Of a stretch of 64,000 nt of DNA, positions 776 through 16,545 are shown piece by piece (positions within the stretch are counted from its first letter, which is position 1; every line of letters begins with the position of its first letter). The notes beneath the pieces are model-generated. The model was not told the origin of the DNA. It worked only from the letters and a program-made list of their open reading frames with translations, and searched no databases. The position numbers and the translations under genes are program-made. The stretch is from an uncultured Pseudomonadota bacterium (GTDB taxonomy: Bacteria > Vulcanimicrobiota > Vulcanimicrobiia > Eremiobacterales > Eremiobacteraceae), in assembly GCA_963736005.1 (NCBI GenBank), contig CAVTNB010000001.1, positions 416,001-480,000 of the forward strand, given 5' to 3'.

Positions 776-3550
776 TTACTTGATCTTCACGGAATAGTTG
801 AAATCGATCGTTCGAAGGGGCAAGCCGAAACGCTCCGTCGCCTGCGCCCCGAAGAACGGCTGGTAATCGGTGGGCTGCGCGAAACTGTTGAGGGGCTGCG
901 GATAACCTTCGCCGATGAGACCACGATAGTCCGCATAATTCTGCCACAGATTGTCAACGTTGGTGGTGAAGGTGCCCTGGCCCACGGGCACGCTGATACT
1001 TAGATCCGAATACGTGTAGGCCGGCAAATCACTGGGATTGTTCTCGGATACATGATAGGTTGTGAGTTGGGCCTCAATGTCGCGCCAAAACGTATAGTCG
1101 AGGGTGTAGGACCATTTGTGCAGCGGAACCGCAGGAATCTGCGAGTTGGGGATGAGGATGAGGCTGCCTCCGAAATTGGGGTTGATGAGTGCTGGGTCGC
1201 TGGATTTGAGTTCGGTGGATTCAGTCGCGTACGTGTAGTCGATAAAGAACGGACGGGTTATTCTGACCCTGCCGGTAAGGTCGATGCCGCGCGCAAGTGT
1301 ATGGCCGATGTTGACCGCACCGTTGACCCCGATGAGCGTCAACGCTTGCGCCGCTGAGATACCGCACACGTTTTTGACCGCGTTGACGTAAGGTGTCGGG
1401 TCAAAGGGAACGGTCAGCACCGAAAGCGGCAGGTTGAGATTTTCATAAATTTGTTCGAAGATGTTTTGATTATAGATCGTCAACTGGGCCGTAGTATCGC
1501 CGGCGAAACGGTGCCCGATGCTAAACTCTTGGTCAACACCTTGTTCGGGTTTTAACAATGATGACGGGACGCTGCCCACCGCGTTCGAGAGGTTACCAGA
1601 ACACGAGACATGCCCAAGGAACGTTCCGACCGCCGACGGGATAAACGACGATTCGACATCGGCGGGGAACGGCTCGGTCGACGTCTCTCCGCCGGCCAGA
1701 CGGAACACGTTGTTTCCTTGTGCGTACACAAAGGCTAGACGAGGGTCGACGAACGACGAGTGCGTGATGGTGGCATTCTTGAACCAGATATTGCCGTAGG
1801 TCGTGAGATGAGAGTTGATCGGGTGCCAGGCGTCGCGCAGGAAATAAGAGGTCTCGTGAACGACAGGAGCCGGTTGTTGGGCCCCATTTTGTTGAAAATA
1901 GTAGGCCGAGTTCTCCCAGAAGTAGCCGAACCCGAACTCGTTGTTTTTTCCAAGAAGATCATCGGACAGCGTTACGCCCGTGTTGCTTGCCTGCTCGAAC
2001 GTCCAAGCAGCATTGTCCGTGGGGACGGCTGTGAACGGAAGCTGAGCCGTGCGGTCGGTAGAGTCTCTGTACGTGTTCGTGAAACTGTTGATCGTGAACG
2101 TGCTCGCGCCGACAGTCTGCTCGTAGCGTAGACCATAGTCATTGGCACGAAGCGCTTGCCACGAGGTGCCCGCGCCCTGCCAGCCGTCGTTGAGATTTGC
2201 ATATTGTTGCGGCGTGACGCACACGGGTGGAGTGCCCGGCGGTGGCGTTGGCACATCGGGCTGGCCGTTGGGGCCGGTACCCGGCGTGCTTCCATTGGCA
2301 TTCGTGCCAGGCTGAAACTTCTTTTTGTTGATAGTATTGCAGGGGTCTGTGCCGGATGCCGCGGCGGCCGCCAGTTGATTCTGTCCGCTCGCAAGGGCAA
2401 CTTCGTACGGCAAGTAATCGTTGTCGCCGTTCCCGGTCTTGTCATCCCACCACGCGCTGCTGAGCCACGTGAACGTCAGATGCGACGCGTCGCTGAAGTT
2501 CATTTGCCCCTTCAAGAGCGTACTCTTCAACGTCAGCGAACTGTCATCCGGATAGTATCCGAGCGCCCGAACCGCGGGATCAGTCGCATACGGATCGAAC
2601 GCGGCCGACGCTTGGTACATGTAATCGTGCTTGAAGAAGCCTTCCTGGCCTTGCGTTCCAAGAGCCAAAGCGTAGCCGAACTTGCCCCCTTGCGTCGAGC
2701 CCGTGGCCGTGATGGCACTGCTCAGGTTGTCCCACGTGCCATAGCCTTGCGTGAATGTCGCGGTCGGATGCAGCGTGGGGTTGAGCGTCTGCATGTCGAC
2801 GACGCCACCGATGGCGTCGACGCCGTAAAGGTCCGAACCCGAGCCGTACAGCACCTTGACATCCTCGAGCCCGAACACCGGCGATAGTTGAAACTGGTAG
2901 GCGCCGCTGAAACCTGGTCCTATGGGGTTGCCATCGATCAGGGTCGTCGTCTCCAATTCCCCAATGCCTCTGATGTCAATGGTTTGCGAGTCCCCTGCCG
3001 TCGCGCCGTCGGATCCCCCGTTCACGATCCCCGGCAGTTTTCGTAGCGCGTCTCCGGCTTTGTAGATGCCTTGGCTCGATAGAGATTGAGCCGAAAGCGA
3101 TGTTGAGATGACAGCCGCGGTCTGCAGCGAAGCGGAACCGTGTATCGTCGTCCGCCCTAGCAGTTTGACTCCCGACGTCACGCCCTGCGAACGAGCGAGC
3201 ACGAGCGTCACGTTTTGGATCTGTCCGCTCGCAAGCGGAAATCGATCCGAAGCCGTGGTCACGTATCCGGTCAAACTGATGATGAGCTCGTACGATCCCG
3301 GCAACAAGTTCTCAAGAGTGAAATTCCCATGCGTGTCGGTAAGCGTCTTCGCCATCGTCGGCCCATCGGCCACGACCCTCACCCCGAGAAGTGGCAAGCC
3401 GCTGCCACCTTCGATAACTTGGCCGCTGATCGAAGCCGTGTCGGTCGTTGCCGCGCCGGCGGCCGCGGAAAATGTCAGAATGCAAAGCACCAAGCTGGAG
3501 ATGAAGAAGACGTTTATCAGAAAAGTGGAATGGCATCGTCGCATCTTCAC
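776..3550 (-). CDS. TonB-dependent receptor with N-terminal carboxypeptidase-regulatory-like domain
   Basis: Signal peptide, ISGQV...TDTHGNFTLENLLPGSY domain, plug motifs (DALRKLPGI, IDIRG, LIDGNPI, YGVDAIGGVVDMQT), LLKPE, beta-barrel-like C-terminus. Confidence 0.9.
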   Translation of the reverse strand: MKMRRCHSTFLINVFFISSLVLCILTFSAAAGAATTDTASISGQVIEGGSGLPLLGVRVVADGPTMAKTLTDTHGNFTLENLLPGSYELIISLTGYVTTASDRFPLASGQIQNVTLVLARSQGVTSGVKLLGRTTIHGSASLQTAAVISTSLSAQSLSSQGIYKAGDALRKLPGIVNGGSDGATAGDSQTIDIRGIGELETTTLIDGNPIGPGFSGAYQFQLSPVFGLEDVKVLYGSGSDLYGVDAIGGVVDMQTLNPTLHPTATFTQGYGTWDNLSSAITATGSTQGGKFGYALALGTQGQEGFFKHDYMYQASAAFDPYATDPAVRALGYYPDDSSLTLKSTLLKGQMNFSDASHLTFTWLSSAWWDDKTGNGDNDYLPYEVALASGQNQLAAAAASGTDPCNTINKKKFQPGTNANGSTPGTGPNGQPDVPTPPPGTPPVCVTPQQYANLNDGWQGAGTSWQALRANDYGLRYEQTVGASTFTINSFTNTYRDSTDRTAQLPFTAVPTDNAAWTFEQASNTGVTLSDDLLGKNNEFGFGYFWENSAYYFQQNGAQQPAPVVHETSYFLRDAWHPINSHLTTYGNIWFKNATITHSSFVDPRLAFVYAQGNNVFRLAGGETSTEPFPADVESSFIPSAVGTFLGHVSCSGNLSNAVGSVPSSLLKPEQGVDQEFSIGHRFAGDTTAQLTIYNQNIFEQIYENLNLPLSVLTVPFDPTPYVNAVKNVCGISAAQALTLIGVNGAVNIGHTLARGIDLTGRVRITRPFFIDYTYATESTELKSSDPALINPNFGGSLILIPNSQIPAVPLHKWSYTLDYTFWRDIEAQLTTYHVSENNPSDLPAYTYSDLSISVPVGQGTFTTNVDNLWQNYADYRGLIGEGYPQPLNSFAQPTDYQPFFGAQATERFGLPLRTIDFNYSVKIK

Positions 3551-3590: not shown

Positions 3591-4658
3591 TCATTGCGTT
3601 GCGTGGAGCCCCACGCGATGCTTGTTGATGGGGTCTAAGAGCCCCTGAATATCCGGCGAATTCACGTTAGCCGGCGTGGCTGCCGTGACGCCGGTGTTGA
3701 TAAATCTTGGCGTGCTTATGCCGGCTGCGGCGAGGACACCATAGGCCACGCCGCCATAGCCCATTTGAAATGGATCCTGCAAGATGATGCCATCGACGAC
3801 ACCTGCTCGCAGCTCGCCGACAAGTTGCGGTGATGGGTCGAAGCCAACCAGTGAGACCTTGGTCGACTCTACGTGGTTCTCACGAAACGCCGTGACTGCG
3901 CCTTGAAGGGTCACGAGAGAATCGGCAAAGTAGCCGGCCAACTTGGGAAAGCGTGTCAAGGTGTCGGCGACGATGCCGATCGGCTTGACTGATTGATCGC
4001 CTGCTGCGTCTTTGTGCGCGACGAGTTGAAGTCCGGGATATTTCTTGAGGCCTTCCAAGAAACCCGAATCGCGGAGCGTCAGCGATCCAACGCCGCTCAA
4101 GAAGGTCGAATACGCGACCTGGCCCGCGGCGGTGCCAGTTTTCCGCTTGATCGCGGCGGCGAGAGTGTCTGCTGCCAAGAGTCCACCGGCGTGATTGTCA
4201 GTAGCCAGAAAGGTTGTGTAGGCATTCGTATTGGCCGCCGAGTCAATGAGGATCACCTTGATGCCGGCCGCCGTAACCTTTTCGATTGTGGCATCCAACG
4301 CGGTGACACTTGTCGGGGCGAGGACGAGAAAGTCCGGCTTCTTTGCCAAGGCGTCTTCGACGAGGGCAATCTGCCCTTGAATATTGGCCTCCGAATTTGC
4401 GCCTGTAAACTGCAATCCGCGCAGGCCAAGCTGTCCGTTTGCGAGGTGTCCCCCCGCGAGGACAGTCTGCCAATAATCCGAGTTTGGCGTCTTTACAATG
4501 AAGAGAAAGCGCAATGCGCCGAGGGAAGACGTCTTCGTTGGGGTCGAACATCCGGGCAAACTCAAACTGCCCGCGGCACTTACCGCAAGGCCAGCAAGGG
4601 CTCCGGTTGCTAAGAGCTTTCGGCGACTTATCCTAGATCGGTTTTGGAAACCCGCCAC
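3591..4658 (-). CDS. Sugar ABC transporter substrate-binding protein, Tat signal and probable lipobox
   Basis: SRRKLL twin-arginine, LPGC lipobox, RbsB-like motifs (VILIDS, ATDN, VGFD, LQDPFQMGY). Confidence 0.9.
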   Translation of the reverse strand: MAGFQNRSRISRRKLLATGALAGLAVSAAGSLSLPGCSTPTKTSSLGALRFLFIVKTPNSDYWQTVLAGGHLANGQLGLRGLQFTGANSEANIQGQIALVEDALAKKPDFLVLAPTSVTALDATIEKVTAAGIKVILIDSAANTNAYTTFLATDNHAGGLLAADTLAAAIKRKTGTAAGQVAYSTFLSGVGSLTLRDSGFLEGLKKYPGLQLVAHKDAAGDQSVKPIGIVADTLTRFPKLAGYFADSLVTLQGAVTAFRENHVESTKVSLVGFDPSPQLVGELRAGVVDGIILQDPFQMGYGGVAYGVLAAAGISTPRFINTGVTAATPANVNSPDIQGLLDPINKHRVGLHATQ

Positions 4659-4719
4659 GCGATGTCACCGCCGGTTTCGTTTCACAAAGAGAGGATGCAC
4701 GAACCCTGAGAGAGCATCA

Positions 4720-4806
4720 TTGCAAGGTTGCCAATACTATTGCAGAATGCGCACTACCTGCATCTGCAATCTCAGCAACTTAGGTGATATCTTGCGCATA
4801 GCGCAA
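4720..4806. promoter_or_regulatory. Four TTGC-N7-GCAA-like boxes in the divergent promoter region, candidate IclR operators
   Basis: 4720-4734 TTGCAAGGTTGCCAA; 4740-4754 TTGCAGAATGCGCAC; 4764-4778 CTGCAATCTCAGCAA; 4792-4806 TTGCGCATAGCGCAA. Confidence 0.55.
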
Positions 4807-4815
4807 AACAACTAA

Positions 4816-5628
4816 ATGGCTGTTCGAACGAGAAGCAATGGGAGACTCATAAACTCCCTTTCGCGCGGCGTCGACATCTTGCGCATGCTCGCGCAAGCGC
4901 AAGCCCCACTGGGCGTCACTGACCTGGGCGAACGCCTGCACGTGGATCCAAGCACCGCATACCGACTCCTCGCAACGTTGGAGGCCCAGGGACTCGTCAA
5001 GCAAGAGCTCGATTCGAGGAAATACTCAGTCGGGTACGGAGTACTCGAATTTGCAAACGCTTTGCTGCGCCGGATGAGTGTCGTCGCGCTTGCCGATCCA
5101 TTTCTTGTTTCGATCACGGCTGATACCGGAGAGAGCACTCACGTAGCGGTGCTCGAGGGCGCGAGAGCGGTTTTTGTGGCGCGTCAGTCAGGCGCCGGAA
5201 TTTTGAGAGTCGAAACGACGGTTGGCAGTTCGGAGCCGGCTTACTGCACAGCGGTCGGCAAAGCGCTGCTCATCGATCACCCCGACGCCGACCTCCAGAC
5301 GCTTTTTCCAAAGGAATCCCTAACGCGTCATACCCCGCAGACAATCACGACCATTGAAGATCTCACTGCGGAACTCGAGCGGATTCGGCGCAACGGCTAC
5401 GCGTACGACGACGAAGAATTGCATCCGGGGGTGCGTTGTCTCGCTTTTCCCATTCGAGATCATCGCGGGCGCGTTACCGCGTCCTTTGGCCTCTCCGCCC
5501 CCGCAGCGCGTCTCACGCGCGAGCACCTACCAACGCTCGTGAAGGTGGTCAGCGCTGCCGCGGACAGCATTTCATTTCAACTCGGCTACCGCACAGAACA
5601 GGTTCCAAAGACGTCTAGAGGCAGGTAA
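4816..5628 (+). CDS. IclR-family transcriptional regulator
   Basis: SLSRGVDIL...STAYRLLATL HTH; CTAVGKALL; GYAYDDEELHPGVRCLA signature. Confidence 0.95.
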   Translation: MAVRTRSNGRLINSLSRGVDILRMLAQAQAPLGVTDLGERLHVDPSTAYRLLATLEAQGLVKQELDSRKYSVGYGVLEFANALLRRMSVVALADPFLVSITADTGESTHVAVLEGARAVFVARQSGAGILRVETTVGSSEPAYCTAVGKALLIDHPDADLQTLFPKESLTRHTPQTITTIEDLTAELERIRRNGYAYDDEELHPGVRCLAFPIRDHRGRVTASFGLSAPAARLTREHLPTLVKVVSAAADSISFQLGYRTEQVPKTSRGR

Positions 5629-5631
5629 GTC

Positions 5632-7440
5632 ATGCGCATGACCGGTGGACAAATTGTCGCAGAGTACCTGATCCGCGAGGGAATGCCGTATCTTTTCGGC
5701 GTCCCTGGGCACGGCAACACCGCACTGCTTGACGCCTTCGTGGACCATCGCGACAAAATCACGGTGATGCAGGCAATCCACGAACAAGGCGCCGCTCACA
5801 TGGCTGACGCCTACTATCGAGTCGCCCGCCGGGCATGCGGCGTGTTTACCTCGATTGGACCTGGCGCTGCGAACACAGCCATGGGCGTGGCGAACGCGTA
5901 CATTGACTCCATCCCTCTTCTTCTCTTGACGGGTTCGGTGCATACCTACATGCGCGGCCGCGGTGTCTTGCAGGAACTCGAGCGCACGCACTGGGCTAAC
6001 TTTGCTCGTATGATGGAGCCCGTCGTCAAACGTTGGTGGCAACCGAGCCGCGTTGACCAATTACCCAACGTGCTCCATTTGGCGTTCAACGTGATGCTCG
6101 AAGGTCGGCGAGGCCCCGCGTACATCGACCTGCCGATGGACGTCCAAGCCGAGGCTGCCGAAATCGAATCGCTTCCAGAGCCGCGCGCGCGCCGGCCGAG
6201 TGGGCGCGTTCACGGCGACCCTGAACTCATCGATCGCGCCGCAAAGCTCTTGCTCGAAGCCAAACGTCCGCTGCTGATCGTTGGCGGCGGCGCTATTGCC
6301 TCTCAAGCAGAATCTGAGGTAGCCGCCGTTGCGGAATTCCTCGGTGCGCCTGTGACCGTCACGTGGATGGGCAAAGGCGTCATCCCAGAGGATCATCCGT
6401 TGTATGCATGGCCATGCGGCGATCTCGGCTCGATTTCGGGGAACACCTTGGCGCGCGAAGCCGACGTTATCTTGAGCGTTGGGTGCCGCTTCACCGATCG
6501 CAGCGCTTCCTCGTTCCGCCGAGACGTCACGTTTAACATTCCCCCCACAAAACTCGTCCACATCGACCTCGATCCCTACGAGATTGGCAAGAATTATCCG
6601 GTTGAGATCGGCATCGTCGGCGACGCCAAGGCAACGCTTGCCGGACTTTTAAGTTCGCTGCATGACTACGCCAAGCCAAATGATTATCGAAATTCAAAAT
6701 ACTTTGCGCACCTGACCGAACTGAAGCGCGCGTGGGATGAGGCGTTGCGGCCCATGCGGGAGAGCAATAACTCGCCAATGACGATTTCGCGAGCGCTCGC
6801 CGAGACTCGTCGCGTCCTTGACCGCGACGCCATCGTTGTCACCGGTGCGGGCAATCCTCAAAGCCAGGTATTCACAGAGTTTCCGGTCTACGGTTCCGCG
6901 CAGCATATCACCGCCGGCGGCTTCTCGGCAATGGGATTTGAAGTGCCAGGGGCCATCGGTGCGAAACTGGCCGCACCAAATCGTCAGGTCGTGGCGATCG
7001 TCGGCGACGGCAGCTTCTTGCAGACGATTCAAGAGCTCTCGATGGCCGCTCAATACGATATTCCGGCCGTCTTCCTCGTCATGAATAACTTCGGGTGGGA
7101 GTGCATCAAGAATCTGCAAATGACGCAGTTCGGACCAGATCGCGTCCTCGCAACAAATTTCAAAAAACGCGATGGCACGCCGTTCTCCGCAAACCTCGCC
7201 AAAGTTGCCGAGGGCTTTGGCTGCTTCGGCGAACGCGTGGAGCAACCGGAGCAGCTTGCCCCAGCGTTGAAACGCGCGCTCGCGTCAGGTCGCCCCGCGG
7301 TGGTCGAGGCGTTGTGTAGCCGGGAACTCCCGTATAGCGGGCTGACGACCACCGGTTGGTGGGACGTCACCGTGCCTGCATATCACAAGGACAAACGCGC
7401 CGCCTACGAAGCTGCCCGATCGGAAGAGGCACTCACCTAA
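5632..7440 (+). CDS. ThDP-dependent enzyme, IolD-like (trihydroxycyclohexanedione acylhydrolase / acetolactate synthase family)
   Basis: GVPGHGN, HEQGAAHMAD, SIGPG, GDGSF..NN ThDP motif, C-terminal WWDV as in IolD; iol gene context. Confidence 0.75.
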   Translation: MRMTGGQIVAEYLIREGMPYLFGVPGHGNTALLDAFVDHRDKITVMQAIHEQGAAHMADAYYRVARRACGVFTSIGPGAANTAMGVANAYIDSIPLLLLTGSVHTYMRGRGVLQELERTHWANFARMMEPVVKRWWQPSRVDQLPNVLHLAFNVMLEGRRGPAYIDLPMDVQAEAAEIESLPEPRARRPSGRVHGDPELIDRAAKLLLEAKRPLLIVGGGAIASQAESEVAAVAEFLGAPVTVTWMGKGVIPEDHPLYAWPCGDLGSISGNTLAREADVILSVGCRFTDRSASSFRRDVTFNIPPTKLVHIDLDPYEIGKNYPVEIGIVGDAKATLAGLLSSLHDYAKPNDYRNSKYFAHLTELKRAWDEALRPMRESNNSPMTISRALAETRRVLDRDAIVVTGAGNPQSQVFTEFPVYGSAQHITAGGFSAMGFEVPGAIGAKLAAPNRQVVAIVGDGSFLQTIQELSMAAQYDIPAVFLVMNNFGWECIKNLQMTQFGPDRVLATNFKKRDGTPFSANLAKVAEGFGCFGERVEQPEQLAPALKRALASGRPAVVEALCSRELPYSGLTTTGWWDVTVPAYHKDKRAAYEAARSEEALT

Positions 7441-8457
7441 ATGCCAGCGCAGCCTATCGGTCTGGCGGTGTTCGGCGCCGGGCGGATTGGCACGGTCCAC
7501 GCCCACAACGCGGCCAACCTGCCGGACGTCAAGCTCGTCGGCGTGGCTGATATCGATCGCACCGCGGCCCAGCGGTTGATCGATACAACCAACGCAGGGC
7601 GGGTCGATAGCACCGCCGCCTTTTTGACCGATCCGAGCGTTTCGGGCGTCGTCATCGCCACCCCAACCGCCTCGCATGCCGCGCTCATCGAGCAGGCCGC
7701 CGTTTCGGGCAAACACGTTTTGTGCGAGAAACCAATCTCACTTGACCTCGCCACCACCCAAGGCGCGATCGCCCGGGCCCAGCAGGCGTCAATTATCCTC
7801 CAGGTGGGGTTTCAGAGACGCTTCGATGCGCAATTTCAGCTTGCTCGGCGCAGTGTCGAGTCTGGGGAACTCGGCACCCCACGCTTTCTGCGCTTGGTAG
7901 GCCGCGATCATCGGATGCCTTCTCTCGACTATCTCCGCACGAGCGGCGGACAGTTCAAAGATCAAATGATTCACGAGTTCGATCTCGCTCGATGGCTCAT
8001 GGCTCCTGCATCCGTCATCCAGGTTTTCGCGGAGGGCTCAGCGGTTATCGAACCCGCGCTTGCCCAGTTCGGCGACGCCGATACCACCGTGGTCGTCTTG
8101 CGCTTTGACAGCGGTGCGTTAGGGATCATTGACGGCTCGCGAGAGGCGGTGTACGGGTACGATGTGCGTGGCGAAATTGTCGGATCGAAGGGCATGGTGC
8201 TCTTTGGGGACGAGCGTCTCACGAGCGGCAAGGTGCTCGATACGAGTGCAGCGACGGCAGAGGTGGAATCATTTGTCGAACGCTTCGAGGTTGCGTACCG
8301 AGCAGAACTCGCCGATTTCGTCGACGCTATTGCCGGCGCACGCGCCCCTCGGGTTGGCGGCAACGACGCATTGGAAGCGCTGCGACTCGCCGAAGCGGCG
8401 ACGCGCTCGTTTCAGGAGCATCGCCCTATCACGCTGTCAGAGACAACTGATGGCTAG
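7441..8457 (+). CDS. iolG: Inositol 2-dehydrogenase (Gfo/Idh/MocA)
   Basis: GAGRIG, CEKP, VGFQRRFD, SGG.F.D.MIH, YGYDVRGE. Confidence 0.85.
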   Translation: MPAQPIGLAVFGAGRIGTVHAHNAANLPDVKLVGVADIDRTAAQRLIDTTNAGRVDSTAAFLTDPSVSGVVIATPTASHAALIEQAAVSGKHVLCEKPISLDLATTQGAIARAQQASIILQVGFQRRFDAQFQLARRSVESGELGTPRFLRLVGRDHRMPSLDYLRTSGGQFKDQMIHEFDLARWLMAPASVIQVFAEGSAVIEPALAQFGDADTTVVVLRFDSGALGIIDGSREAVYGYDVRGEIVGSKGMVLFGDERLTSGKVLDTSAATAEVESFVERFEVAYRAELADFVDAIAGARAPRVGGNDALEALRLAEAATRSFQEHRPITLSETTDG

Positions 8458-8467
8458 TGGAGGGCGA

Positions 8468-9274
8468 ATGTCGCCGCTGTTGGTTCGCGGCGCCGATATA
8501 CCCGAGGGCGAGCTCGTTTCGATCGCTCCAAGCGGCCAAGCGTGGCGCTACATCCGGTTTCGCGCGACCAGACTGCGCACCGACGGCATTATCCGCGGCG
8601 AAACCGCGGGCAACGAAATGGCCCTCGTGGTTATTTCGGGCAGCGTGCATGTGGCTTCTCCCGAGGGATCGTGGAAAAATGTCGGTCAACGCGCCGATCC
8701 TTTCTCAGGCCCACCATCGGCCGTGTACCTGCCGTCGTCGACAAGCTATGAAATCGTCGCAGCCAGTCACGCGGAGATCGCCATCTGCGAGGCGCCGGGC
8801 CCGAAGCCTTATCCCGCTCGGAGGATCGAGCTGGCCAGCGATGCGGGCTACCTTCGTGGAGAAGGGCACGCGCAGCGGCGCATTTACAACATTCTCATGG
8901 ATGAGGATGGTGCCAATAGCCTCTTCTTGACCGAAGTGATAACGTTTCCAGGCAACTGGTCGAGCTATCCGCCGCACAAGCACGATACCGACAATCCTCC
9001 GGTCGAGTCTCAACTCGAAGAACTCTACTACTATCGCGCGCAACCACAGCAAGGCTTTGCTTTTCAACGCATTTACACTGAATCCGGCGATCTTGACGAA
9101 ACGATCACGGCACACAACACCGACGTTGTCCTCGTGCCTCGCGGTTACCATGTGTGTGCCGCCGCCGCCCAGTATTCGATCTATTATCTCAACGTGCTCG
9201 CCGGTCCAAGACACGTCTACCACATGACCTTCGATCCGGCGCATGCCTGGATTAAAGAAGGCTGGACGTGGTAG
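8468..9274 (+). CDS. iolB: 5-deoxy-glucuronate isomerase
   Basis: GNWSSYPPHKHD, LEELYYY, VPRGYH, YYLNVLAGP; ATG 8468 after GGAGG. Confidence 0.93.
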   Translation: MSPLLVRGADIPEGELVSIAPSGQAWRYIRFRATRLRTDGIIRGETAGNEMALVVISGSVHVASPEGSWKNVGQRADPFSGPPSAVYLPSSTSYEIVAASHAEIAICEAPGPKPYPARRIELASDAGYLRGEGHAQRRIYNILMDEDGANSLFLTEVITFPGNWSSYPPHKHDTDNPPVESQLEELYYYRAQPQQGFAFQRIYTESGDLDETITAHNTDVVLVPRGYHVCAAAAQYSIYYLNVLAGPRHVYHMTFDPAHAWIKEGWTW

Positions 9275-10155
9275 ACGAGATTGAAGTGGGCACGGCGGCG
9301 GTCAACTGGGGTTTCGATCCGCTCTACACATGGGTGACGACCCCAAGGTTTGACGACCTGCTCGATCAGATGGCAGCAGCAGGTTACGCGGGCACGGAAA
9401 TCGGCGACAATTTCCCACGCGACCTCGATACAGTGCGCGGTCAGCTAGATGCACACCGCCTGCGGGCCGCCGCTTCATTTCAAGCGGTGGACTTGCGGGA
9501 TCGCCAGACGCACGAACTGGTTGTGCGCGATGTCCTCAAGGTCGCCGACCGTTTGGCGGCACTCGGCTCAAACGTTCTCATTCTTTCGGATAAGCCGTCG
9601 GCCGCGCGTCTTGAAATTGCCGGCCGAGTCGCCGCAGATGGGAGCGACGGCTTGAGCGGAACGCAATGGCGCGTGCTGTGCGATGGACTCAATCGCGCCG
9701 GCGAGCGCCTCGCGAACCAGGCGATCCGCGCGGTCTTTCATCCTCATGTCGGCACGTTCGTGGAGACACGCTCGGAAATCGACCAGCTCTGCGAGCTCAC
9801 CGATCCGGCGTTCCTCGGCCTGTGTCCGGATACCGGGCACTTAGCGTATGCTGGCGTCGATCCCGAAGCCATCTTTCACGACTACGCTGCTCGCATTGGA
9901 TACGTTCATCTCAAGGACGTGGATCGCGTCAAGCTCGAGGCCGTACGGTCCCAAGGCATCGACTTCGTGGCGGCGGTGCGCATGGGACTTTTTGTGGAAC
10001 TCGGCACGGGGATCGTGCCGATCGAACGCATCGTGCGCCACCTGCGCGAAGCGCGCTACGCAGGCTGGATCATCGTGGAACAAGATGCGCCAAGCGACCC
10101 CAACACCGCGGCGCGACGCAATCGAGAATACCTGCGCCGAGAGTTTGGCTTATGA
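9268..10155 (+). CDS. iolE: Myo-inosose-2 dehydratase-like TIM-barrel protein
   Basis: AGYAGTE, FHPHVGT, DTGH, HLKD, GWIIVEQD; iol context. Confidence 0.75.
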   Translation: MVDEIEVGTAAVNWGFDPLYTWVTTPRFDDLLDQMAAAGYAGTEIGDNFPRDLDTVRGQLDAHRLRAAASFQAVDLRDRQTHELVVRDVLKVADRLAALGSNVLILSDKPSAARLEIAGRVAADGSDGLSGTQWRVLCDGLNRAGERLANQAIRAVFHPHVGTFVETRSEIDQLCELTDPAFLGLCPDTGHLAYAGVDPEAIFHDYAARIGYVHLKDVDRVKLEAVRSQGIDFVAAVRMGLFVELGTGIVPIERIVRHLREARYAGWIIVEQDAPSDPNTAARRNREYLRREFGL

Positions 10156-11009
10156 ACGTACGCGAGCTGCGGCGCACCGGCAACGAAATCCGCCGTCTGA
10201 CTCTGCAGGCTGTGCATCACGCGGGCGCAGGACACATCGGTGGGGTGTTTTCGGCAGCGGATATGCTTTCGGCGCTGTACTTTTCCGAACTTCGTATCGA
10301 TCCAACGAAACCACTCTGGCCGGATCGGGACCGATTCGTTCTCTCGAAGGGGCACGCCGCAATCGGGCTCTATGCCACCCTGGCGCTGCGCGGTTATTTC
10401 CCCATCAAGGAGCTCGCGACGTTTGACGCGATCAATTCGCGCCTGCAAGGCCATCCAGATATGACAAAATTGCCCGGACTCGACATGTCGACCGGCTCGC
10501 TTGGCCAGGGTCTCTCCCCCGGCGTCGGGATGGCGCTCGGCGCGCGTCTGCTCGGCAAGGATTTTCAAACGTGGGTGATGCTTGGGGATGGCGAAATTCA
10601 AGAGGGCCAAATTTGGGAAGCTGCATTTACGGCAGCTCGGTATCAACTGGAGAACCTTATCGCAATCTTAGACTGGAATCATTTGCAGCAGTTCGGATGG
10701 GCGACTGCAGAGGGGTACGGGAGCACGGCGCGGCTCGATCCGGTCGCTGCGCCGCAGGAAAAATGGCGCGCGTTCGGCTGGCGCGTCCTCGAGTGCGATG
10801 GCCATAACATTGAGGATTTTCTCCGCGCATGTCGCGGCGCGAGGGAGCCCGCAGGTCGTCCGTCGATCATCATCGCGCGCACAATAAAAGGAAAGGGCGT
10901 CTCGTTCATGGAGAATGAGTTCGCCTGGCACTCAAAGCCCTTCGGTGATGAGGAGTTCGCGCGAGCACTGGCTGAACTGCACGCTGCCGACGCAGCGGCA
11001 GCGGTTTAA
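10152..11009 (+). CDS. Transketolase, N-terminal (ThDP-binding) subunit
   Basis: AGHIGG, DRFVLSKGHA, LQGHP, STGSLGQG, GDGEIQEG; ATGA overlap with iolE. Confidence 0.93.
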   Translation: MNVRELRRTGNEIRRLTLQAVHHAGAGHIGGVFSAADMLSALYFSELRIDPTKPLWPDRDRFVLSKGHAAIGLYATLALRGYFPIKELATFDAINSRLQGHPDMTKLPGLDMSTGSLGQGLSPGVGMALGARLLGKDFQTWVMLGDGEIQEGQIWEAAFTAARYQLENLIAILDWNHLQQFGWATAEGYGSTARLDPVAAPQEKWRAFGWRVLECDGHNIEDFLRACRGAREPAGRPSIIIARTIKGKGVSFMENEFAWHSKPFGDEEFARALAELHAADAAAAV

Positions 11010-11012
11010 CCT

Positions 11013-11957
11013 ATGGCTATTTCAAAGGCGCTGGCGCAGCGCGACGTCTTCGGCGACACGATGATCGAGTTGTGTGCCAAAGACGAGCGGGTCGTCCTCC
11101 TTGACGGCGACCTCGCAAATTCGACGAAGTCGGATAAACTGGCCGCGGCGAATCCGAGTCGCTTCTTCATGATGGGCATCGCAGAGCAAAATCTCGCTGG
11201 GGTTGCCGCCGGGCTCGCGAGCGTTGGGCTCAAGCCCTGGATCGCATCCTTTGCCGCCTTCTTAGCAACGCGCGATCTCGACCAAATCCGAGTGGTCATC
11301 GCTCAACCGAAACTCAACGTTCGGCTTGCCGCGCATTATAGTGGCATCCTGACCGGATTCACAGGCAAGACGCATCAAGTCGTCAATGACATCGCGATCA
11401 TGCGCTCGCTGCCCAACATGGCGGTGGTCGCGCCGTGCGACGGTATCGAAGCGCGCGCGGCGATGCTGGTGCTCAACGAATACGTTGGCCCGGTCTACTT
11501 GCGGCTGACGCGCGATGCCATCGCAACCATCTTGCCGCAAGATTACACATTCGCACTTGGCCGAACATTGTTACTGCGGGAGGGCTCGGACATCGCTCTC
11601 ATTTCGACCGGTTCGCAAACGGTTCGCACGCTGGAAGCGGCGGGCGATCTTGCCTCGTTGGGGATTTCGGCGAGCGTGCTCCACGTTCCGACCATCAAGC
11701 CAATCGACGCCGACGCCATCGTTGCGGCGGCCTCGCACGTACCATGCGTGTTGACCTGCGAAGAGCACTCCATTCTCGGCGGCCTTGGTGGCGCCGTCGC
11801 CGAGATTCTCAGCGAGCGCCACCCCATGCCCGTGATCAGACTCGGATTGCGCGACGTCGATGGCGAAAGTGCCCCCAACGATCAGCTCATCAAAAAGTAT
11901 GGGTTGAGCTCAGCGCATGTCGTGCAAGCCGCGCTGGACCTCGTGCGCAAACCGTGA
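11013..11957 (+). CDS. Transketolase, C-terminal subunit
   Basis: GIAEQN, GKTHQ, PVYLRL, TIKPID, EEHSILGGLG. Confidence 0.93.
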   Translation: MAISKALAQRDVFGDTMIELCAKDERVVLLDGDLANSTKSDKLAAANPSRFFMMGIAEQNLAGVAAGLASVGLKPWIASFAAFLATRDLDQIRVVIAQPKLNVRLAAHYSGILTGFTGKTHQVVNDIAIMRSLPNMAVVAPCDGIEARAAMLVLNEYVGPVYLRLTRDAIATILPQDYTFALGRTLLLREGSDIALISTGSQTVRTLEAAGDLASLGISASVLHVPTIKPIDADAIVAAASHVPCVLTCEEHSILGGLGGAVAEILSERHPMPVIRLGLRDVDGESAPNDQLIKKYGLSSAHVVQAALDLVRKP

Positions 11958-13024
11958 CGACCATTGCCGTCTTGCCCGGAGACGGTATCGGCCCCGAGGT
12001 GACGCGGGCTGCGGTGCAGGTCTTACGCTTCGTGCGCCCCGATCTCGAGTGCATCGAGGCTGACGTGGGCGCAGCCGCTCTGCGCGCTGGAAAAGCTCCG
12101 CTCCCGCAACAAACGCGCGATCTGTGCGCGCGAAGCGCCGCCATCTTATTCGGTGCAGTCGGGCTCCCCGAGTACGAGAATCTGCCACTGAGCAAGCGGC
12201 CGGAAAGCGCGCTCTTTACGCTGCGTCACGACTTCGAGCTTTTCGCAAACCTGCGCCCAGTTCGAGTCTTTCCTGGCCTGGAGACTGCGTCAAGCCTGCG
12301 CCCCGACCTCGTGACCGGTTTGGATCTAATCGTCGTTCGCGAGCTGACCAGCGGTATCTACTTCGGGCAACCCAAAGAGCGGCGCGTCGTCTCAGGAATC
12401 GAAGAAGCCGTCGATACGATGTATTACAGCGCTCCGCAGATCGAGCGCATCGCGCGCGTCGCATTCGCCCTGGCGCGAGGACGGCGTCAACACGTGACGT
12501 CGGTGGACAAACACAATATCTTGGAGACGTCCGGCCTGTGGCGAGAGGTCGTGACAAAAGTTGCGCGCGACTATGCGGACGTTTGCGTCGAGCATCTCCT
12601 GGTTGACAACGCGTCGATGCAGCTGATCCGCCGTCCGAAAGACTTCGACGTCATCCTCACCGAGAACATGTTCGGCGACATTCTGTCGGACGAAGCGGCG
12701 ATGCTAACGGGTTCTGTCGGAAATCTGCCGAGTGCCAGTCTTGGCACGAGAGCTTACGCCGATCGTCAATTCGGCATGTACGAGCCGATCAGCGGCACCG
12801 CGCCCGATATTGCCGGCAAGGGAATTGCTAACCCGACAGCGGCCATTCTTTCTGCGGCGATGCTCTTGCGGCACAGCCTCGCCGATCAGCTCGCAGCACT
12901 GCGAATCGAGACAGCCGTCGCGAAAGTTTTTCAACAAGGAGCGCGCACCGCCGAACTGGCGTCTCGCGGGGCAGCCTTCTACAACACGCAGGAATTTACG
13001 GAGCTGATCGTGTCGAAGCTCTGA
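11954..13024 (+). CDS. leuB: 3-isopropylmalate dehydrogenase family beta-decarboxylating dehydrogenase
   Basis: LPGDGIGPEV, FANLRP, VRELTSGIYFG, NMFGDILSD, APDIAGKGIANP; GTGA overlap with transketolase. Confidence 0.85.
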   Translation: MTTIAVLPGDGIGPEVTRAAVQVLRFVRPDLECIEADVGAAALRAGKAPLPQQTRDLCARSAAILFGAVGLPEYENLPLSKRPESALFTLRHDFELFANLRPVRVFPGLETASSLRPDLVTGLDLIVVRELTSGIYFGQPKERRVVSGIEEAVDTMYYSAPQIERIARVAFALARGRRQHVTSVDKHNILETSGLWREVVTKVARDYADVCVEHLLVDNASMQLIRRPKDFDVILTENMFGDILSDEAAMLTGSVGNLPSASLGTRAYADRQFGMYEPISGTAPDIAGKGIANPTAAILSAAMLLRHSLADQLAALRIETAVAKVFQQGARTAELASRGAAFYNTQEFTELIVSKL

Positions 13025-13049
13025 CGATCTCTGTCGACGAGTCTGGCGC

Positions 13050-13496
13050 CTAAAACACTTCCACCGGAAAGGCGCCGGCTCCAGAGAAAAGGCTCTTCAC
13101 CTGATCGACTTTGCCGCTTGCGTTATAGCCCGCGATACTTCGCCCCTCCGAGAGCGCCCGCGTGAAATCCTCAACGCGAGTATCTGGGATGTCGAGTTCG
13201 CTGAGCAACTCAGCCGTCGACGGCTCGTGGAAAGCCCCGACGCGAGGAATGTTTTGGGTCAGACCGGGAACCCCGGTTCCGCCGAACCCCGTGATGATGC
13301 CGCCCTGCGTCCCTATGGTGGCCGCTTCAGCATCTCCGGAGACGAATTGCGCACCACTGTTAATCAAGTCATCTGCAGGCGTTTCTGGCGTAATGACGCG
13401 CAGTCGCTCGATGTCGAGTCCACTGGATTTCAGGGCGCCTGTGAGTTTCGAAAGGCCATCATGGTCAGCGAAAATACCAACCACCACACTACCCAT
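13050..13496 (-). CDS. Hypothetical protein (general-stress-protein-like, Gly-rich middle)
   Basis: 148-aa ORF with AAGGA RBS; VVVGIF N-terminal strand; family not certain. Confidence 0.65.
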   Translation of the reverse strand: MGSVVVGIFADHDGLSKLTGALKSSGLDIERLRVITPETPADDLINSGAQFVSGDAEAATIGTQGGIITGFGGTGVPGLTQNIPRVGAFHEPSTAELLSELDIPDTRVEDFTRALSEGRSIAGYNASGKVDQVKSLFSGAGAFPVEVF

Positions 13497-14579: not shown

Positions 14580-15878
14580 TTAGTCTTGATTGTAAGCAGT
14601 GTAGGTCATCGTCCCCGTGGTCATCGTTGTGTTCGCTTGACCGGCGTCGTAGAGTATTCCCGATCCAGACCCACCGTCGATGTCGACGTTAATGCCGCCG
14701 TCGAAGGCTCCCTGCACCGTGCCCGTTCCCCCGACCGAGATGGAACCGTTCGGCGCGAAGGCAGTTGCGACAGGCTCGATGCCGGCGCTTGGAGCCAGTG
14801 ACAGCGCGTCGGCCGCGCTGACTCCACAAGGATTGATCGCACCCGGATCGTTGCCCAAGGCAATGAGCAGCGTATTCGCGGGAAGAGTGACTGCATAGCC
14901 GCCCGTGCCGCTCGAGGAAACCACTCCGGTCACCACCATGACCCCTTGGTTCGCGTCTGTGTTCAAAACCGATCCAGTGCCGCTAATGCAGAGGTTGCCA
15001 TTAATGTAGACGTCGCTGCCCGAGGTAAAGGTGACTGTTCCCGATGTGATGTCAACGTCTCCGTTGACGTACATATTGCCGCTGTAGGTCGCCGTGCCGG
15101 CGCCCGAGATGGTCGCGCCGGTCACGGTCGTTCCAGCCTGTGCGATCAATCGTGCATTCTGCGCCGCTTGGGTCACCTGCGTCGGAGAAGGGAAATACAC
15201 AGGCGACGCACCTGAGGTATTGGTGGTTCCCGTGTTCAGGGCATCCGTCCCCACCGCTTGCGTGCTGCCCTGCACCGTGCTCGGGGCACTGCTCATCGTA
15301 ATATTGTTATTTGCCGCAATGTTCGCGTCATTTGTGTGAAGCGGATCCTGCTTGACCGGCTCGGGCGCTCGGTCGTTGATGTTTTGCGCAGCGTTCACCA
15401 CGCCGGATGGCATGGTGAGAGGCGGGGCAGGCTCGGCGATCGCTTCCACGTAGACTTTTCGGCTGCCGTTGTTTGTCGACTCACCGTAGATATAGGCGGT
15501 TCCCTGGGGCACCCACAACTGTTGCCCGTTCGCGTAGTCGGTGGCTAGCGCGGGAGCCGTCCCGTTCAGATTATTGTCGCCCATACACGAGCGGTAGTTC
15601 ATACCGTTGAGGCTGCCGGTGACGCACCCTACGGGTTCGTTCGGATTTTCCGCCAAACGGTTCAGCGCGAGATTTGCGGCTGCCTCGGCAGAGTTCATCA
15701 CTCCATACTTGACGCCGACTGCTTGCGCCTGATCCACCGCGTTGAAAGCGCCGGTGACGACTAAGATTGCGATGAGCAGCAGCAGCGCAATGAGGACGAA
15801 GACGAAGGCCATCGCAAATCCACGCTCTGCGCCCTTGGCTTGCAATGTTGCAATGACCCGAGGCTTAGTTGCGCGCAT
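14580..15878 (-). CDS. PilX-like minor pilin with long Gly/Thr/Asn-rich C-terminal domain
   Basis: ERG/FAMAFVFVLIALLLL class III signal lacking Glu5; NSAEAA motif; ATG 15878 overlaps upstream gene. Confidence 0.75.
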   Translation of the reverse strand: MRATKPRVIATLQAKGAERGFAMAFVFVLIALLLLIAILVVTGAFNAVDQAQAVGVKYGVMNSAEAAANLALNRLAENPNEPVGCVTGSLNGMNYRSCMGDNNLNGTAPALATDYANGQQLWVPQGTAYIYGESTNNGSRKVYVEAIAEPAPPLTMPSGVVNAAQNINDRAPEPVKQDPLHTNDANIAANNNITMSSAPSTVQGSTQAVGTDALNTGTTNTSGASPVYFPSPTQVTQAAQNARLIAQAGTTVTGATISGAGTATYSGNMYVNGDVDITSGTVTFTSGSDVYINGNLCISGTGSVLNTDANQGVMVVTGVVSSSGTGGYAVTLPANTLLIALGNDPGAINPCGVSAADALSLAPSAGIEPVATAFAPNGSISVGGTGTVQGAFDGGINVDIDGGSGSGILYDAGQANTTMTTGTMTYTAYNQD

Positions 15879-16545
15879 AGGTGTCGCTCTCGAAATCCGT
15901 GAGCGTCCGATCGACGCCGCCGGTCGAGCCGGCGAGTAAATCGAACGTGATCGTGCTTTGGCTTGGATTATCACCCAAGCTCATGGACGCGATATAATTG
16001 GTGAGAACGGGCGGCGGCGAAATCAAGAGCGCCTTGATCACATCCGGCACGACGAGTGCGGCTGTCACGTTCTTCGGGACTCCGTTAATCGCGGTTATTG
16101 CCGCCGGTTCAAAAGCTCGCATCAGCTGAAACGACGTCCCGTTCGAGTTGGGCTCAAGCCAGTAGACGTCAAATCCTTGCCAAGCCGGGTAGCCTTTATT
16201 TGGATCTGTCGGGTTTGTGACGACGTGGAATTGGCCGGTTCCGTCATCCGCGGTCGCGACCACCAGCGCTTGGACACTGGTCGGCGAGCTCCCAGGAGCA
16301 CTGCAGATGACCACGGGCGTGATCGAGCAGCCCATCACGCCGCTCGTATCTCCTTGGCTGAAGTCCTTGCGAATCTCGTACAGCGCGACGGCGGCCATAT
16401 TGACCTCATCGACTTGCGACTGCACTTGCATCGGAGCCTTGAGCATCAACGGCAGGATCATGACCATGGAGGTCATGATGACCCCAAGGATCACGGCGAC
16501 GGTGAGCACCTCTGCAATTGAGAAACCGCGTTGCGTGCGCGTCAT
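15865..16545 (-). CDS. PilW-like prepilin-type minor pilin
   Basis: QRG/FSIAEVL N-methylation motif; ATGA overlap at 16542-16545. Confidence 0.8.
   Translation of the reverse strand: MTRTQRGFSIAEVLTVAVILGVIMTSMVMILPLMLKAPMQVQSQVDEVNMAAVALYEIRKDFSQGDTSGVMGCSITPVVICSAPGSSPTSVQALVVATADDGTGQFHVVTNPTDPNKGYPAWQGFDVYWLEPNSNGTSFQLMRAFEPAAITAINGVPKNVTAALVVPDVIKALLISPPPVLTNYIASMSLGDNPSQSTITFDLLAGSTGGVDRTLTDFESDTYARN

Follow-up and report, generated by a model that had tools for sequence, protein, structure and literature searches.

How may a bacterium degrade inositol when the operon that appears to be devoted to this task carries no gene for the kinase IolC of the canonical pathway? This question arises from a 64,000-nt stretch of DNA, hereafter the window, which corresponds to positions 416001-480000 of contig C1 (CAVTNB010000001.1, assembly GCA_963736005.1) of a soil bacterium of the Eremiobacterota. 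The assembly comprises 2.84 Mb in 6 contigs and is 84% complete. The operon in question is located at positions 4816-13024 of the window, and all 8 genes are on the + strand, in the order iclR, acetolactate synthase (ALS)-like thiamine diphosphate (ThDP) enzyme, iolG, iolB, iolE-like, tktN, tktC, and leuB-like. We propose, with a probability that we estimate at roughly 55%, that this is an IclR-controlled operon for the kinase-free catabolism of myo-inositol or a close cyclitol, in which a dedicated two-subunit transketolase and a LeuB paralogue form the lower pathway.

An earlier note, made from the letters of the window, had described the eight genes as a single tight run, which our analysis bore out. 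The first gene encodes an IclR-family regulator (4816-5628; PF01614 [IclR_C], 155.7 bits; PF09339 [HTH_IclR], 59.3 bits). After a gap of 3 nt follows the gene for the 602-aa ThDP enzyme (5632-7440), which occupies the place of IolD and matches the IolD and ALS models; iolG (7441-8457) begins immediately thereafter (0 nt). The start of iolB (8468-9274), an ATG preceded by GGAGGG, lies 10 nt downstream of iolG, or iolB overlaps iolG by 8 nt if the alternative start at 8450 is considered. The iolE-like gene (9268-10155) overlaps iolB by 7 nt and is joined to tktN (10152-11009) by an ATGA overlap. A gap of 3 nt separates tktN from tktC (11013-11957), and a GTGA overlap connects the latter to the leuB-like gene (11954-13024). 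As read from the sequence, all junctions are thus either overlaps or gaps of at most 10 nt. This arrangement is not due to chance, because the same order recurs in 9 of the 10 other Eremiobacterota loci that hold an orthologue of the ThDP enzyme.

The scheme that we propose builds on what was observed, namely, the gene content of the operon, its conservation, the absence of IolC and DUF2090, the altered site of the transketolase, and the status of the last gene as a LeuB paralogue; every substrate and product in it is predicted. IolG would oxidize the cyclitol, and the IolE-like enzyme, a putative inosose dehydratase, would dehydrate the inosose. The ALS-like ThDP enzyme, a putative hydrolase in place of IolD, would open the diketone ring to give 5-deoxy-glucuronate, and IolB would convert the latter into 5-dehydro-2-deoxy-D-gluconate (DKG). 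The operon resembles the canonical IolG/E/D/B/C/J/A route of Bacillus subtilis in its IolG-like, IolE-like, and IolB families and in its ThDP enzyme of the IolD/ALS superfamily, and DKG is likely to be the same intermediate in both. Instead of phosphorylation by IolC and cleavage by IolJ, the dedicated two-subunit transketolase would take unphosphorylated DKG as ketol donor and move C6-C5 to an aldose acceptor, which is probably glyceraldehyde-3-phosphate, yielding xylulose-5-phosphate. The C4 product released would be (3R)-3-hydroxy-4-oxobutanoate, the 2-deoxy analogue of tartaric semialdehyde. An aldehyde dehydrogenase (ALDH) encoded elsewhere in the genome would oxidize this compound to D-malate [(R)-malate], which the LeuB paralogue, acting as a D-malate-type oxidative decarboxylase, would convert into pyruvate and CO2. 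The predicted carbon split is thus 2+4 and proceeds without ATP, whereas the canonical route splits 3+3 after phosphorylation. Compared with IolC/IolJ/IolA, no ATP would be spent, and the products would be a pentose phosphate and pyruvate rather than dihydroxyacetone phosphate and acetyl-CoA. The cluster also differs from the known IolC-DUF2090 variant in that IolC, DUF2090, and IolA are all absent and a two-subunit transketolase and a LeuB paralogue are found among the lower-pathway genes.

The stereochemical reasoning of the earlier note held when we checked it by hand in Fischer projection. Read from C6, DKG is CH2OH-CO-CHOH-CHOH-CH2-COO- and has the D-threo configuration of fructose and xylulose, and by similar hand reasoning its C4 remnant has the R configuration of D-malate. 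The homology of IolJ to fructose-bisphosphate aldolase is consistent with D-threo DKG. The members of the isopropylmalate dehydrogenase (IPMDH) superfamily all oxidize hydroxy acids of the 2R configuration, and the product of the pathway is predicted to have this configuration. The evidence in support of the kinase-free transketolase reading is comparative, and the role of the LeuB paralogue in D-malate conversion is one that we infer; our confidence is higher that the transketolase replaces IolC and IolJ than that the LeuB paralogue takes D-malate.

Whole-genome searches agreed with the earlier note in that the run contains neither iolC nor iolA and the window no aldehyde dehydrogenase: no match to the IolC model, to DUF2090 (PF09863), or to the ALDH and methylmalonate-semialdehyde dehydrogenase (MMSDH) families was obtained in the window. 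In the host genome, the best match to the IolC model (TIGR04382, cut-off of 300 bits) was a fructokinase-like PfkB protein with 169.8 bits, encoded far from the operon. IolC was not detected above the cut-off in any of 5 Eremiobacterota carriers of the operon, among them a complete chromosome with a best match of 32.7 bits, nor in any of 5 carriers from Chloroflexia and Verrucomicrobia. Of the canonical iolC/iolJ set elsewhere under the same regulator, which the earlier note had named as grounds for abandoning its proposal, iolC was thus found in 0 of 10 carriers. The DUF2090 aldolase was absent from 5/5 Eremiobacterota carrier genomes, and no model specific for the class II aldolase IolJ was searched. 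MMSDH-type genes above the cut-off were present in 5/5 Eremiobacterota carriers, all far from the cluster (C1:1627442 in the host genome), and their existence in the host genome is a caveat on the first interpretation of the operon.

The operon supplies neither the housekeeping transketolase nor the housekeeping LeuB of the genome, because a separate full-length tkt (C1:1998331-2000358; TIGR00232, 875.6 bits) and a second LeuB exist in the genome. The possibility that the split enzyme is the only transketolase of the genome, which had been raised in the earlier note, was thus eliminated. TktN is the N-terminal subunit with the ThDP-binding PP domain (PF00456, 185.7 bits), and TktC is the C-terminal subunit with the Pyr and C domains (PF02779 and PF02780). 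The closest solved structure to both subunits is the split transketolase of Carboxydothermus hydrogenoformans (6yaj/6yak; 291.5 and 279 bits), which is likewise built of two chains. When aligned to 6yak, TktN keeps the catalytic His residues, the GDG motif, and the Asn, which we take to be its catalytic and ThDP-motif residues. TktC was also aligned with human transketolase and retains the equivalents of Arg318, Ser345, and Arg474, namely, the two Arg and the Ser of the phosphate site, as well as the cofactor-activating Glu (IAEQN). What has changed is the canonical ..THAG..GEDGxSHQ, which reads ..HYSG..GFTGKTHQ in the cluster TktC: the phosphate-site His (residue 416 in human, 461 in Escherichia coli) is replaced by Tyr, and GEDG by GFTG followed by a new Lys. 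The C. hydrogenoformans enzyme, in contrast, has THAG...GEDGASHQ and falls in the canonical motif class. In canonical transketolases, the Asp of GEDG reads the hydroxyl configuration; its position is occupied by Thr in the cluster TktC. Because two acidic residues are lost and a Lys is gained close to the catalytic His, the site would fit a donor with a carboxylate as its anionic group. The carboxylate of DKG would lie two atoms nearer to the ketol than does the phosphate of xylulose-5-phosphate.

The Tyr/GxTGK pattern was observed in 39 of 82 TktC sequences from the fetched loci, and nearly all of the other 43 had the canonical His...GEDG. In a quick maximum-likelihood tree of the 82 rows, the 39 sequences formed one side of a branch with an SH-aLRT support of 87. 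Every iol-linked TktC was inside this clade, but they did not form one single subclade, and the clade also occurs in non-inositol settings, namely, with Zn-dehydrogenases and a TRAP transporter, with cupins, and with Dak kinases. SqwGH of the sulfoquinovose pathway and AptAB of the apiose pathway, to which the earlier note had pointed, are dedicated split transketolases for non-standard ketoses and are encoded in catabolic clusters. They are similar to the present enzyme in architecture and context, and the substrates on which they act bear a sulfonate or phosphate group rather than a carboxylate.

These data also bear on the possibility that DKG is still phosphorylated by an unrecognized kinase and that the split transketolase only reshuffles pentose-phosphate intermediates further downstream. 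The PfkB protein with its sub-threshold IolC score (169.8 bits, cut-off of 300) could be such a kinase, and a pyrophosphate (PPi)-phosphofructokinase-family gene lies beside three Bacillaceae transketolase clusters. However, the complete carrier chromosome contains no PfkB match above 32.7 bits on the IolC model, DUF2090 was found in 0/5 genomes, the host genome already encodes a canonical transketolase, and the cluster enzyme lacks the canonical phosphate-site His and GEDG. Furthermore, by the established mechanism, 6-phosphorylated DKG cannot serve as a transketolase donor. We consider a hidden kinase highly improbable.

Is the association of this transketolase with iol genes conserved? A scan seeded with the TktN of the window, based on one genome per species and the best 80 loci, retrieved 4 Eremiobacterota loci with all eight genes in the same order. 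A second scan, seeded with the ThDP enzyme of the window, retrieved 10 Eremiobacterota loci, 9 of which had all eight genes in order; the tenth is on a fragmented assembly, in which the leuB-like gene was not detected at the coverage threshold used. In 10/10 of these related loci, iclR heads the cluster. In an even sample of 151 Eremiobacterota genomes, a TktN that is at least 66% identical was found in 6, including that of the window, whereas most other sampled members had only a split transketolase with 42-48% identity. The transketolase and the LeuB paralogue are hence genuine, conserved parts of an inositol-type catabolic operon.

Synteny without iolC, the recurrence of which the earlier note had proposed to examine, was also found in other phyla. 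In Chloroflexia, the order is iolE-tktN-tktC-iolG(-iolB-iolD) in loci L017 and L018, whereas L036 has iolE-iolG-iolB, followed by a ThDP enzyme that is 52% identical to that of the window and by tktN-tktC. Verrucomicrobia loci L045 and L055 show iolD-iolE-tktN-tktC(-iolG-iolG-iolB-ABC [ATP-binding cassette] transporter), and in four NC10 loci an IolE-like gene immediately precedes tktN-tktC. The IolE-like homologue is thus located directly 5' of tktN in Eremiobacterota, L017/L018, L045/L055, and the NC10 loci. The partner proteins outside Eremiobacterota are canonical, with scores of 896-936 bits for IolD (cut-off of 715), 423 for IolG (355), and 251-299 for IolB (205). IolD, IolB, and, where scored, IolG above their cut-offs adjoin the same transketolase type in L018, L045/L055, L021, L164, and L165, the last two of which are Bacillaceae loci and the only ones with an IolE above the cut-off.

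Some of these loci differ in their further gene content. The NC10/Methylomirabilota loci (L021, L026, L031, and L043) combine the IolE-like gene and the non-canonical transketolase with genes for a Zn-dehydrogenase, a member of the creatininase family, a protein with the metallo-beta-lactamase fold, and the kinase subunits Dak1/Dak2, and a canonical IolD is encoded 5 kb upstream in L021. These loci may represent a related pathway in which a kinase acts on the ketose product. In L030 (Chloroflexia) and L049 (Dormibacterota), the non-canonical transketolase adjoins a small cupin, and the neighbors in L030 also include UPF0261 (Tm-1-like), phosphoenolpyruvate-hydrolase-like, and 2-phosphosulfolactate-phosphatase-like proteins.

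The same type of transketolase is found in Bacillaceae, where the enzymes that are predicted to act after it can be seen in its neighborhood. We conducted a scan seeded with the TktN of "Bacillus ndiopicus" and considered the best 80 loci, 78 of which had a classifiable TktC match; ALDH genes were counted within 9 kb. Among the 35 loci with a non-canonical TktC motif, 28 contained an ALDH gene, 17 an IPMDH-family gene, 12 iol-like genes, and 4 both IolB and IolD. None of these four was found in any of the 29 loci with the canonical motif, and of the 14 loci with an unclassified motif, one contained an ALDH gene and none any of the others. Many of the loci belong to related Bacillaceae, so that these numbers are counts rather than independent events.

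In Robertmurraya, "B. ndiopicus", and Psychrobacillus, the transketolase of this clade is accompanied by a TRAP transporter and a pair of idonate-5-dehydrogenase/IolM-like Zn-dehydrogenases, and it adjoins an ALDH gene and a tartrate/D-malate dehydrogenase gene (TIGR02089, 496-556 bits, cut-off of 470). The range of TIGR02089 scores for the TTC-type enzymes of the Bacillaceae clusters was 494.9-556.5 bits. A recurrent cluster of LacI, Zn-dehydrogenases, TRAP transporter, transketolase, ALDH, and TTC was seen in the Bacillaceae loci L037, L048/L139, L141-L145, L149, L151, L152, L155, L162, L166, and L167. The Zn-dehydrogenase/TRAP cluster would be consistent with the conversion of idonate or gluconate into tartrate, with 5-keto-gluconate and tartaric semialdehyde as intermediates. 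The transketolase is also paired with a TTC-type gene in L174 (Chloroflexota) and L172 (Acidimicrobiaceae). Other Bacillaceae clusters are of the inositol type. Oceanobacillus caeni (L164) has IolG (365.7 bits), IolD (950.3), IolB (355), IolE (379.4), IolG, one unassigned gene, TktN, TktC, ALDH, and chiro-inositol dehydrogenase; Shouchella shacheensis (L165) has LacI, IolG, IolD (965), TktN, TktC, IolB, IolG, IolG, IolE, an ALDH of the SSADH (succinate-semialdehyde dehydrogenase) type (675.4, cut-off of 646), and a PPi-phosphofructokinase-family gene; and Ectobacillus funiculus and Bacillus sp. FJAT-50079 have IolG, TktN, TktC, ALDH, and TTC (495 bits). The PPi-phosphofructokinase-family gene (NF010675) lies by three differently arranged Bacillaceae clusters (L048:8763-9941, L164:785-1675, and L165:16275-17483) and may serve pentose-phosphate rearrangement or phosphorylate the product of the transketolase. 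S. shacheensis contains no IolC above the cut-off (best match of 206 bits, cut-off of 300), whereas IolC exceeded it in O. caeni, O. polygoni, Oceanobacillus sp. Castelsardo, and E. funiculus. Since the cluster type occurs in cultured S. shacheensis (without iolC) and O. caeni, the proposal is open to bench work without the need to culture Eremiobacterota.

Of the two steps that the earlier note had placed after the transketolase, both are encoded beside the same transketolase type in Bacillaceae, as an ALDH gene and an IPMDH-superfamily gene, the latter from a different branch than the Eremiobacterota LeuB paralogue. The ALDH, on the other hand, is not part of the Eremiobacterota clusters. 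The host genome has at least 7 ALDH-family genes, and the best of them is 39% identical to the ALDH of the "B. ndiopicus" cluster. We gave up naming the pathway ALDH in the host genome, as none is near the operon and none stands out.

How well do the upper-pathway proteins conform to their canonical counterparts? IolB, the 5-deoxy-glucuronate isomerase (TIGR04378, 280.4 bits), exceeds its cut-off of 205, and the inositol 2-dehydrogenase-like IolG aligned over the full length of TIGR04380 with 346.3 bits, within 9 bits of the cut-off of 355. The IolE-like protein, which has the xylose isomerase fold, aligned to positions 2-287 of the 290 of TIGR04379 and is, with 201.7 bits (cut-off of 290), a sub-threshold member of the family. 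The label "iolD-like" of the earlier note was right as to the IolD/ALS superfamily but not in the sense of a canonical IolD, because the ThDP enzyme reached 339.8 bits on the IolD model TIGR04377 (cut-off of 715) and more, 387.7 bits, on the ALS model (cut-off of 538). Its 52% identical relative in the Chloroflexia locus L036 is encoded between iolB and tktN, and in other transketolase-type clusters a canonical IolD (896-965 bits) takes the equivalent role. The cluster ThDP enzyme is the sole ALS-family gene in 4 of 5 carrier genomes, and no ALS large subunit at the cut-off was found in the host genome or in G001, G003, G004, and G106. Other members of the sister family contain a canonical ALS, and one relative without the operon also lacks it. 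We did not adopt the idea that the ThDP enzyme is the ALS of the genome, given this relative and the fact that the enzyme is associated with iol genes in two phyla. The data speak neither for nor against an additional role in the synthesis of branched-chain amino acids. The shortage of ALS possibly reflects auxotrophy for branched-chain amino acids in part of the phylum.

The last gene of the operon raises the question of whether it belongs to the pathway at all. Its product resembles LeuB in score (TIGR00169, 436.7 bits, cut-off of 353.2) and in tree position, and it differs in being an extra, cluster-borne copy that does not adjoin leuCD. The second LeuB of the genome (C1:179667-180749; NF002898, 437.5 bits, cut-off of 393) is encoded about 500 nt 3' of leuC. 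The best-scoring solved relatives of the cluster LeuB are all bacterial IPMDHs, and the protein is not a member of the TTC family (TIGR02089, 213.8 bits, cut-off of 470.4), in contrast to the true TTC-type tartrate/D-malate dehydrogenases (TTC/DmlA type) of the Bacillaceae clusters. A locus search seeded with the LeuB-like protein alone yielded 5 close relatives, and phylum-wide searches in the above sample of 151 genomes were used instead. In the family of the window (f1; counts include genome G137), the LeuB type found beside leuC was present in 9/9 other members (8/8 without G137), as compared with 0/71 members of the sister family (f2). The cluster type, in turn, occurred in f1 only in the host genome and in 1/9 other members (1/8 without G137), which is the second cluster carrier, G112, whereas 66/71 members of f2 had it as their single housekeeping copy. 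The two LeuB types, actinobacterial-like NF002898 in f1 and TIGR00169 in f2, thus split cleanly by family. In some f2 genomes, a canonical ALS gene is located a few kb away from the single LeuB copy. In one f2 genome (L102:8001-8948), the housekeeping LeuB is encoded downstream of sepF and divIVA and upstream of flagellar rod genes, and its open reading frame (ORF) ends early, at 315 aa, possibly because of a frameshift in the long-read assembly.

All six sampled genomes with a cluster-type TktN had a LeuB-type gene about 1 kb from tktN and another LeuB elsewhere; this includes the four f2 carriers, each with two copies, one about 1 kb from tktN with tktC in between and one elsewhere. The leuB-like gene adjoins tktC in every Eremiobacterota cluster where it could be scored (9/10 loci of the scan seeded with the ThDP enzyme and 6/6 sampled genomes). 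A tree of 26 sequences grouped the 9 cluster copies into one clade (ultrafast bootstrap of 85, SH-aLRT of 95, present in 80% of the bootstrap trees) within the f2 housekeeping clade. As the cluster copies form one clade nested in the f2 housekeeping LeuB, the tree indicates that the cluster leuB arose by one duplication of the housekeeping gene and then stayed with the operon, and that it was retained also after the operon had reached a family that uses the other LeuB type.

The leuB-like gene might nevertheless be a second isopropylmalate dehydrogenase gene that is simply carried along as the last gene of the operon without taking part in catabolism. Its score above the LeuB equivalog cut-off, its solved relatives, its nesting in the f2 housekeeping clade, and the lack of distinctive active-site changes would all agree with this, and the transketolase-type iol clusters of Chloroflexia and Verrucomicrobia do without LeuB. 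On the other hand, the gene was kept beside tktC in 9/10 loci and in 6/6 sampled genomes, each of which has another LeuB; in the family of the window it occurs only in the two cluster carriers; and the tartrate/D-malate dehydrogenase branch was independently recruited beside the same transketolase type in Bacillaceae, L174, and L172. In the light of these data, we regard a mere hitch-hiker as quite unlikely. At two isopropyl-pocket positions, Leu-to-Phe and Val-to-Ile changes were considered as a signal of specificity and dropped, as they are also present in the f2 housekeeping LeuB.

Several findings weigh against the scheme as a whole. Apart from the IolJ-specific model mentioned above, the absence of IolC and DUF2090 from the host genome rests on its relatives, since this genome is 84% complete. 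No ALDH was found in any Eremiobacterota cluster examined, the Chloroflexia and Verrucomicrobia clusters contain no IPMDH-family gene, and neither the ThDP enzyme nor the IolE-like protein reaches the cut-off of the respective model, IolD or IolE. A column-by-column contrast of the cluster and f2 housekeeping LeuB revealed 7 discriminating columns, none of them catalytic, and no remodeling of catalytic or pocket positions; because of this, the LeuB sequence does not single out D-malate. Finally, a canonical iolA-B-C-D-E operon is located in O. caeni (G160 C1:396000-403000) on the same contig as the transketolase-type cluster L164 and about 20 kb from it, which shows that both cluster types can coexist. 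The IolD, IolB, and IolE paralogues of the two clusters are 49%, 48%, and 41% identical, respectively. The routes in this species would either be redundant, or the transketolase type would serve another isomer or derivative, and the cluster in O. caeni may thus have a different substrate.

This leads to an alternative in which the transketolase route is real but starts from another cyclitol or sugar acid, with a keto acid that differs in stereochemistry or substitution. The transketolase and the LeuB paralogue would accept these variant compounds, so that, for example, L-malate or an alkyl-malate would be formed. Apart from the coexistence of the two sets in O. caeni, with paralogues that are 41-49% identical, this alternative would account for the replacement of the hydroxyl-reading Asp by Thr, for the sub-threshold scores of the ThDP enzyme and the IolE-like protein, and for the presence of the transketolase clade in non-inositol contexts. 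However, IolB of the window is above its cut-off and IolG within 9 bits of it; IolG, IolD, and IolB exceed their cut-offs in other transketolase-type clusters, as does IolE in the two Bacillaceae loci; and the carriers outside Bacillaceae have no other iol set, with no IolC above the cut-off in 10/10. A different substrate of the operon consequently appears unlikely to us, and myo-inositol or a close cyclitol is the substrate that we favor.

Precedents for parts of the scheme were sought in the literature. A full-text search that covered few subscription journals yielded no article in which a transketolase takes part in the breakdown of inositol, and nothing useful was found on S. shacheensis and inositol. 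A transketolase-based, ATP-free lower branch would be an undescribed variant of the known inositol pathway. The Dysosmobacter pathway was rejected as a precedent, since the inositol route in that article is kinase dependent (PMC13311982). In another article, IolJ and DUF2090 are the only aldolases named, and 8 of 26 inositol users are reported to have neither (PMC9007349). The closest chemical parallel comes from tartrate biosynthesis: the R358I/H461S/R520Q variant of E. coli TktA cleaves the C4-C5 bond of 5-keto-D-gluconate to give tartaric semialdehyde (PMC12016104). The reaction, which is also that of the proposed tartrate route of grapevine, concerns the same C4-C5 bond of a 5-keto-hexonate and an unphosphorylated acidic substrate, and DKG is the 2-deoxy analogue of the substrate of the engineered enzyme. 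The cluster TktC is naturally substituted at the equivalent of H461, whereas it retains the two Arg that were mutated in TktA (R358 and R520). A semialdehyde dehydrogenase is proposed as the subsequent enzyme in both routes. In the tartrate route, a canonical transketolase shows the activity promiscuously or after engineering (PMC12016104); here, it would belong to a natural, separate subfamily encoded in catabolic operons.

A broader reading, which we hold tentatively and with somewhat less than even confidence, is that the Tyr/GxTGK split transketolases are natural sugar-acid transketolases. They would cleave unphosphorylated 5-keto-aldonates to give a C2 unit for transfer and a C4 semialdehyde acid, and the latter would be processed further by an ALDH and an IPMDH-superfamily enzyme; the donors would be DKG, formed from inositol, and 5-keto-gluconate, formed from idonate or gluconate. 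If so, the catabolism of inositol and aldonates would have a lower branch that needs no ATP and extends over at least 5 phyla, and these enzymes would be the natural counterpart of the one that tartrate-pathway engineers built by mutagenesis. As to the inositol route itself, phytate and plant lipids supply inositol, which is a major carbon source in soil and gut, and the genome-based prediction of inositol users relies on iolC and iolJ/DUF2090. A transketolase branch, if true, would explain seemingly incomplete inositol clusters, such as may be present in the 8 of 26 users counted in PMC9007349. The ATP otherwise spent on DKG would be saved, and carbon would be obtained as xylulose-5-phosphate and a C4 acid instead of two C3 units. 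A natural transketolase for carboxylate sugars would also be useful in the biocatalysis of tartrate and hydroxy acids.

The operon is flanked on its 3' side, between 13050 and 16626 of the window (- strand), by three ORFs of 148, 291, and 464 aa without a Pfam or NCBIfam match; a 253-aa ORF at 15865-16626 (- strand) matches only the prepilin N-terminal methylation motif, weakly and below the threshold. Scans of positions 4400-13400 returned 0 promoter-like sites and 8 terminator-like sites, as compared with a mean of 8.8 in shuffled sequences, and both are uninformative for this phylum. Upstream of iclR, two elements are candidate operators. A perfect 15-nt palindrome, TTGCGC-ATA-GCGCAA (4792-4806), ends 10 nt 5' of the iclR start and is a candidate IclR operator; the genome contains no second exact copy, and the palindrome recurs at the same place with 1-3 changes in L126, L127, L128, L129, and L135. 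An ATTGCA-repeat element (4718-4745), a candidate operator or promoter, was recognized by eye in the upstream regions of L126, L127, L128, L129, and L133.

Divergent from iclR lies an uptake unit on the - strand. It starts with a periplasmic sugar-binding protein of the Peripla_BP_4 family (3591-4658; PF13407, 151.8 bits), which showed weak matches to allose, ribose, and rhizopine binding proteins and is a candidate component of cyclitol uptake. This gene is followed by that of a TonB-dependent receptor with a carboxypeptidase-regulatory-like N terminus (776-3550; Pfam Plug and CarboxypepD_reg), located between binding protein and permease, and, as the last gene, by that of an ABC permease (BPD_transp_2, PF02653; 3-755), which runs off the start of the window and has a full ORF of 374 aa (C1:415631-416755). 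No ABC ATPase was found further upstream of the permease. In the Verrucomicrobia locus L045, Peripla_BP_4 and BPD_transp_2 proteins are encoded together with an ABC ATPase after iolB. Upstream of the permease and just outside the window (C1:410300-412100), a gene of a phosphoesterase family (PF04185, phospholipase C/acid phosphatase family) is split into two ORFs, and a fragment that encodes a TonB Plug domain is located close to this split gene; both may be due to frameshifts or assembly errors. We can only speculate that the phosphoesterase is linked to the liberation of inositol from inositol phosphates.

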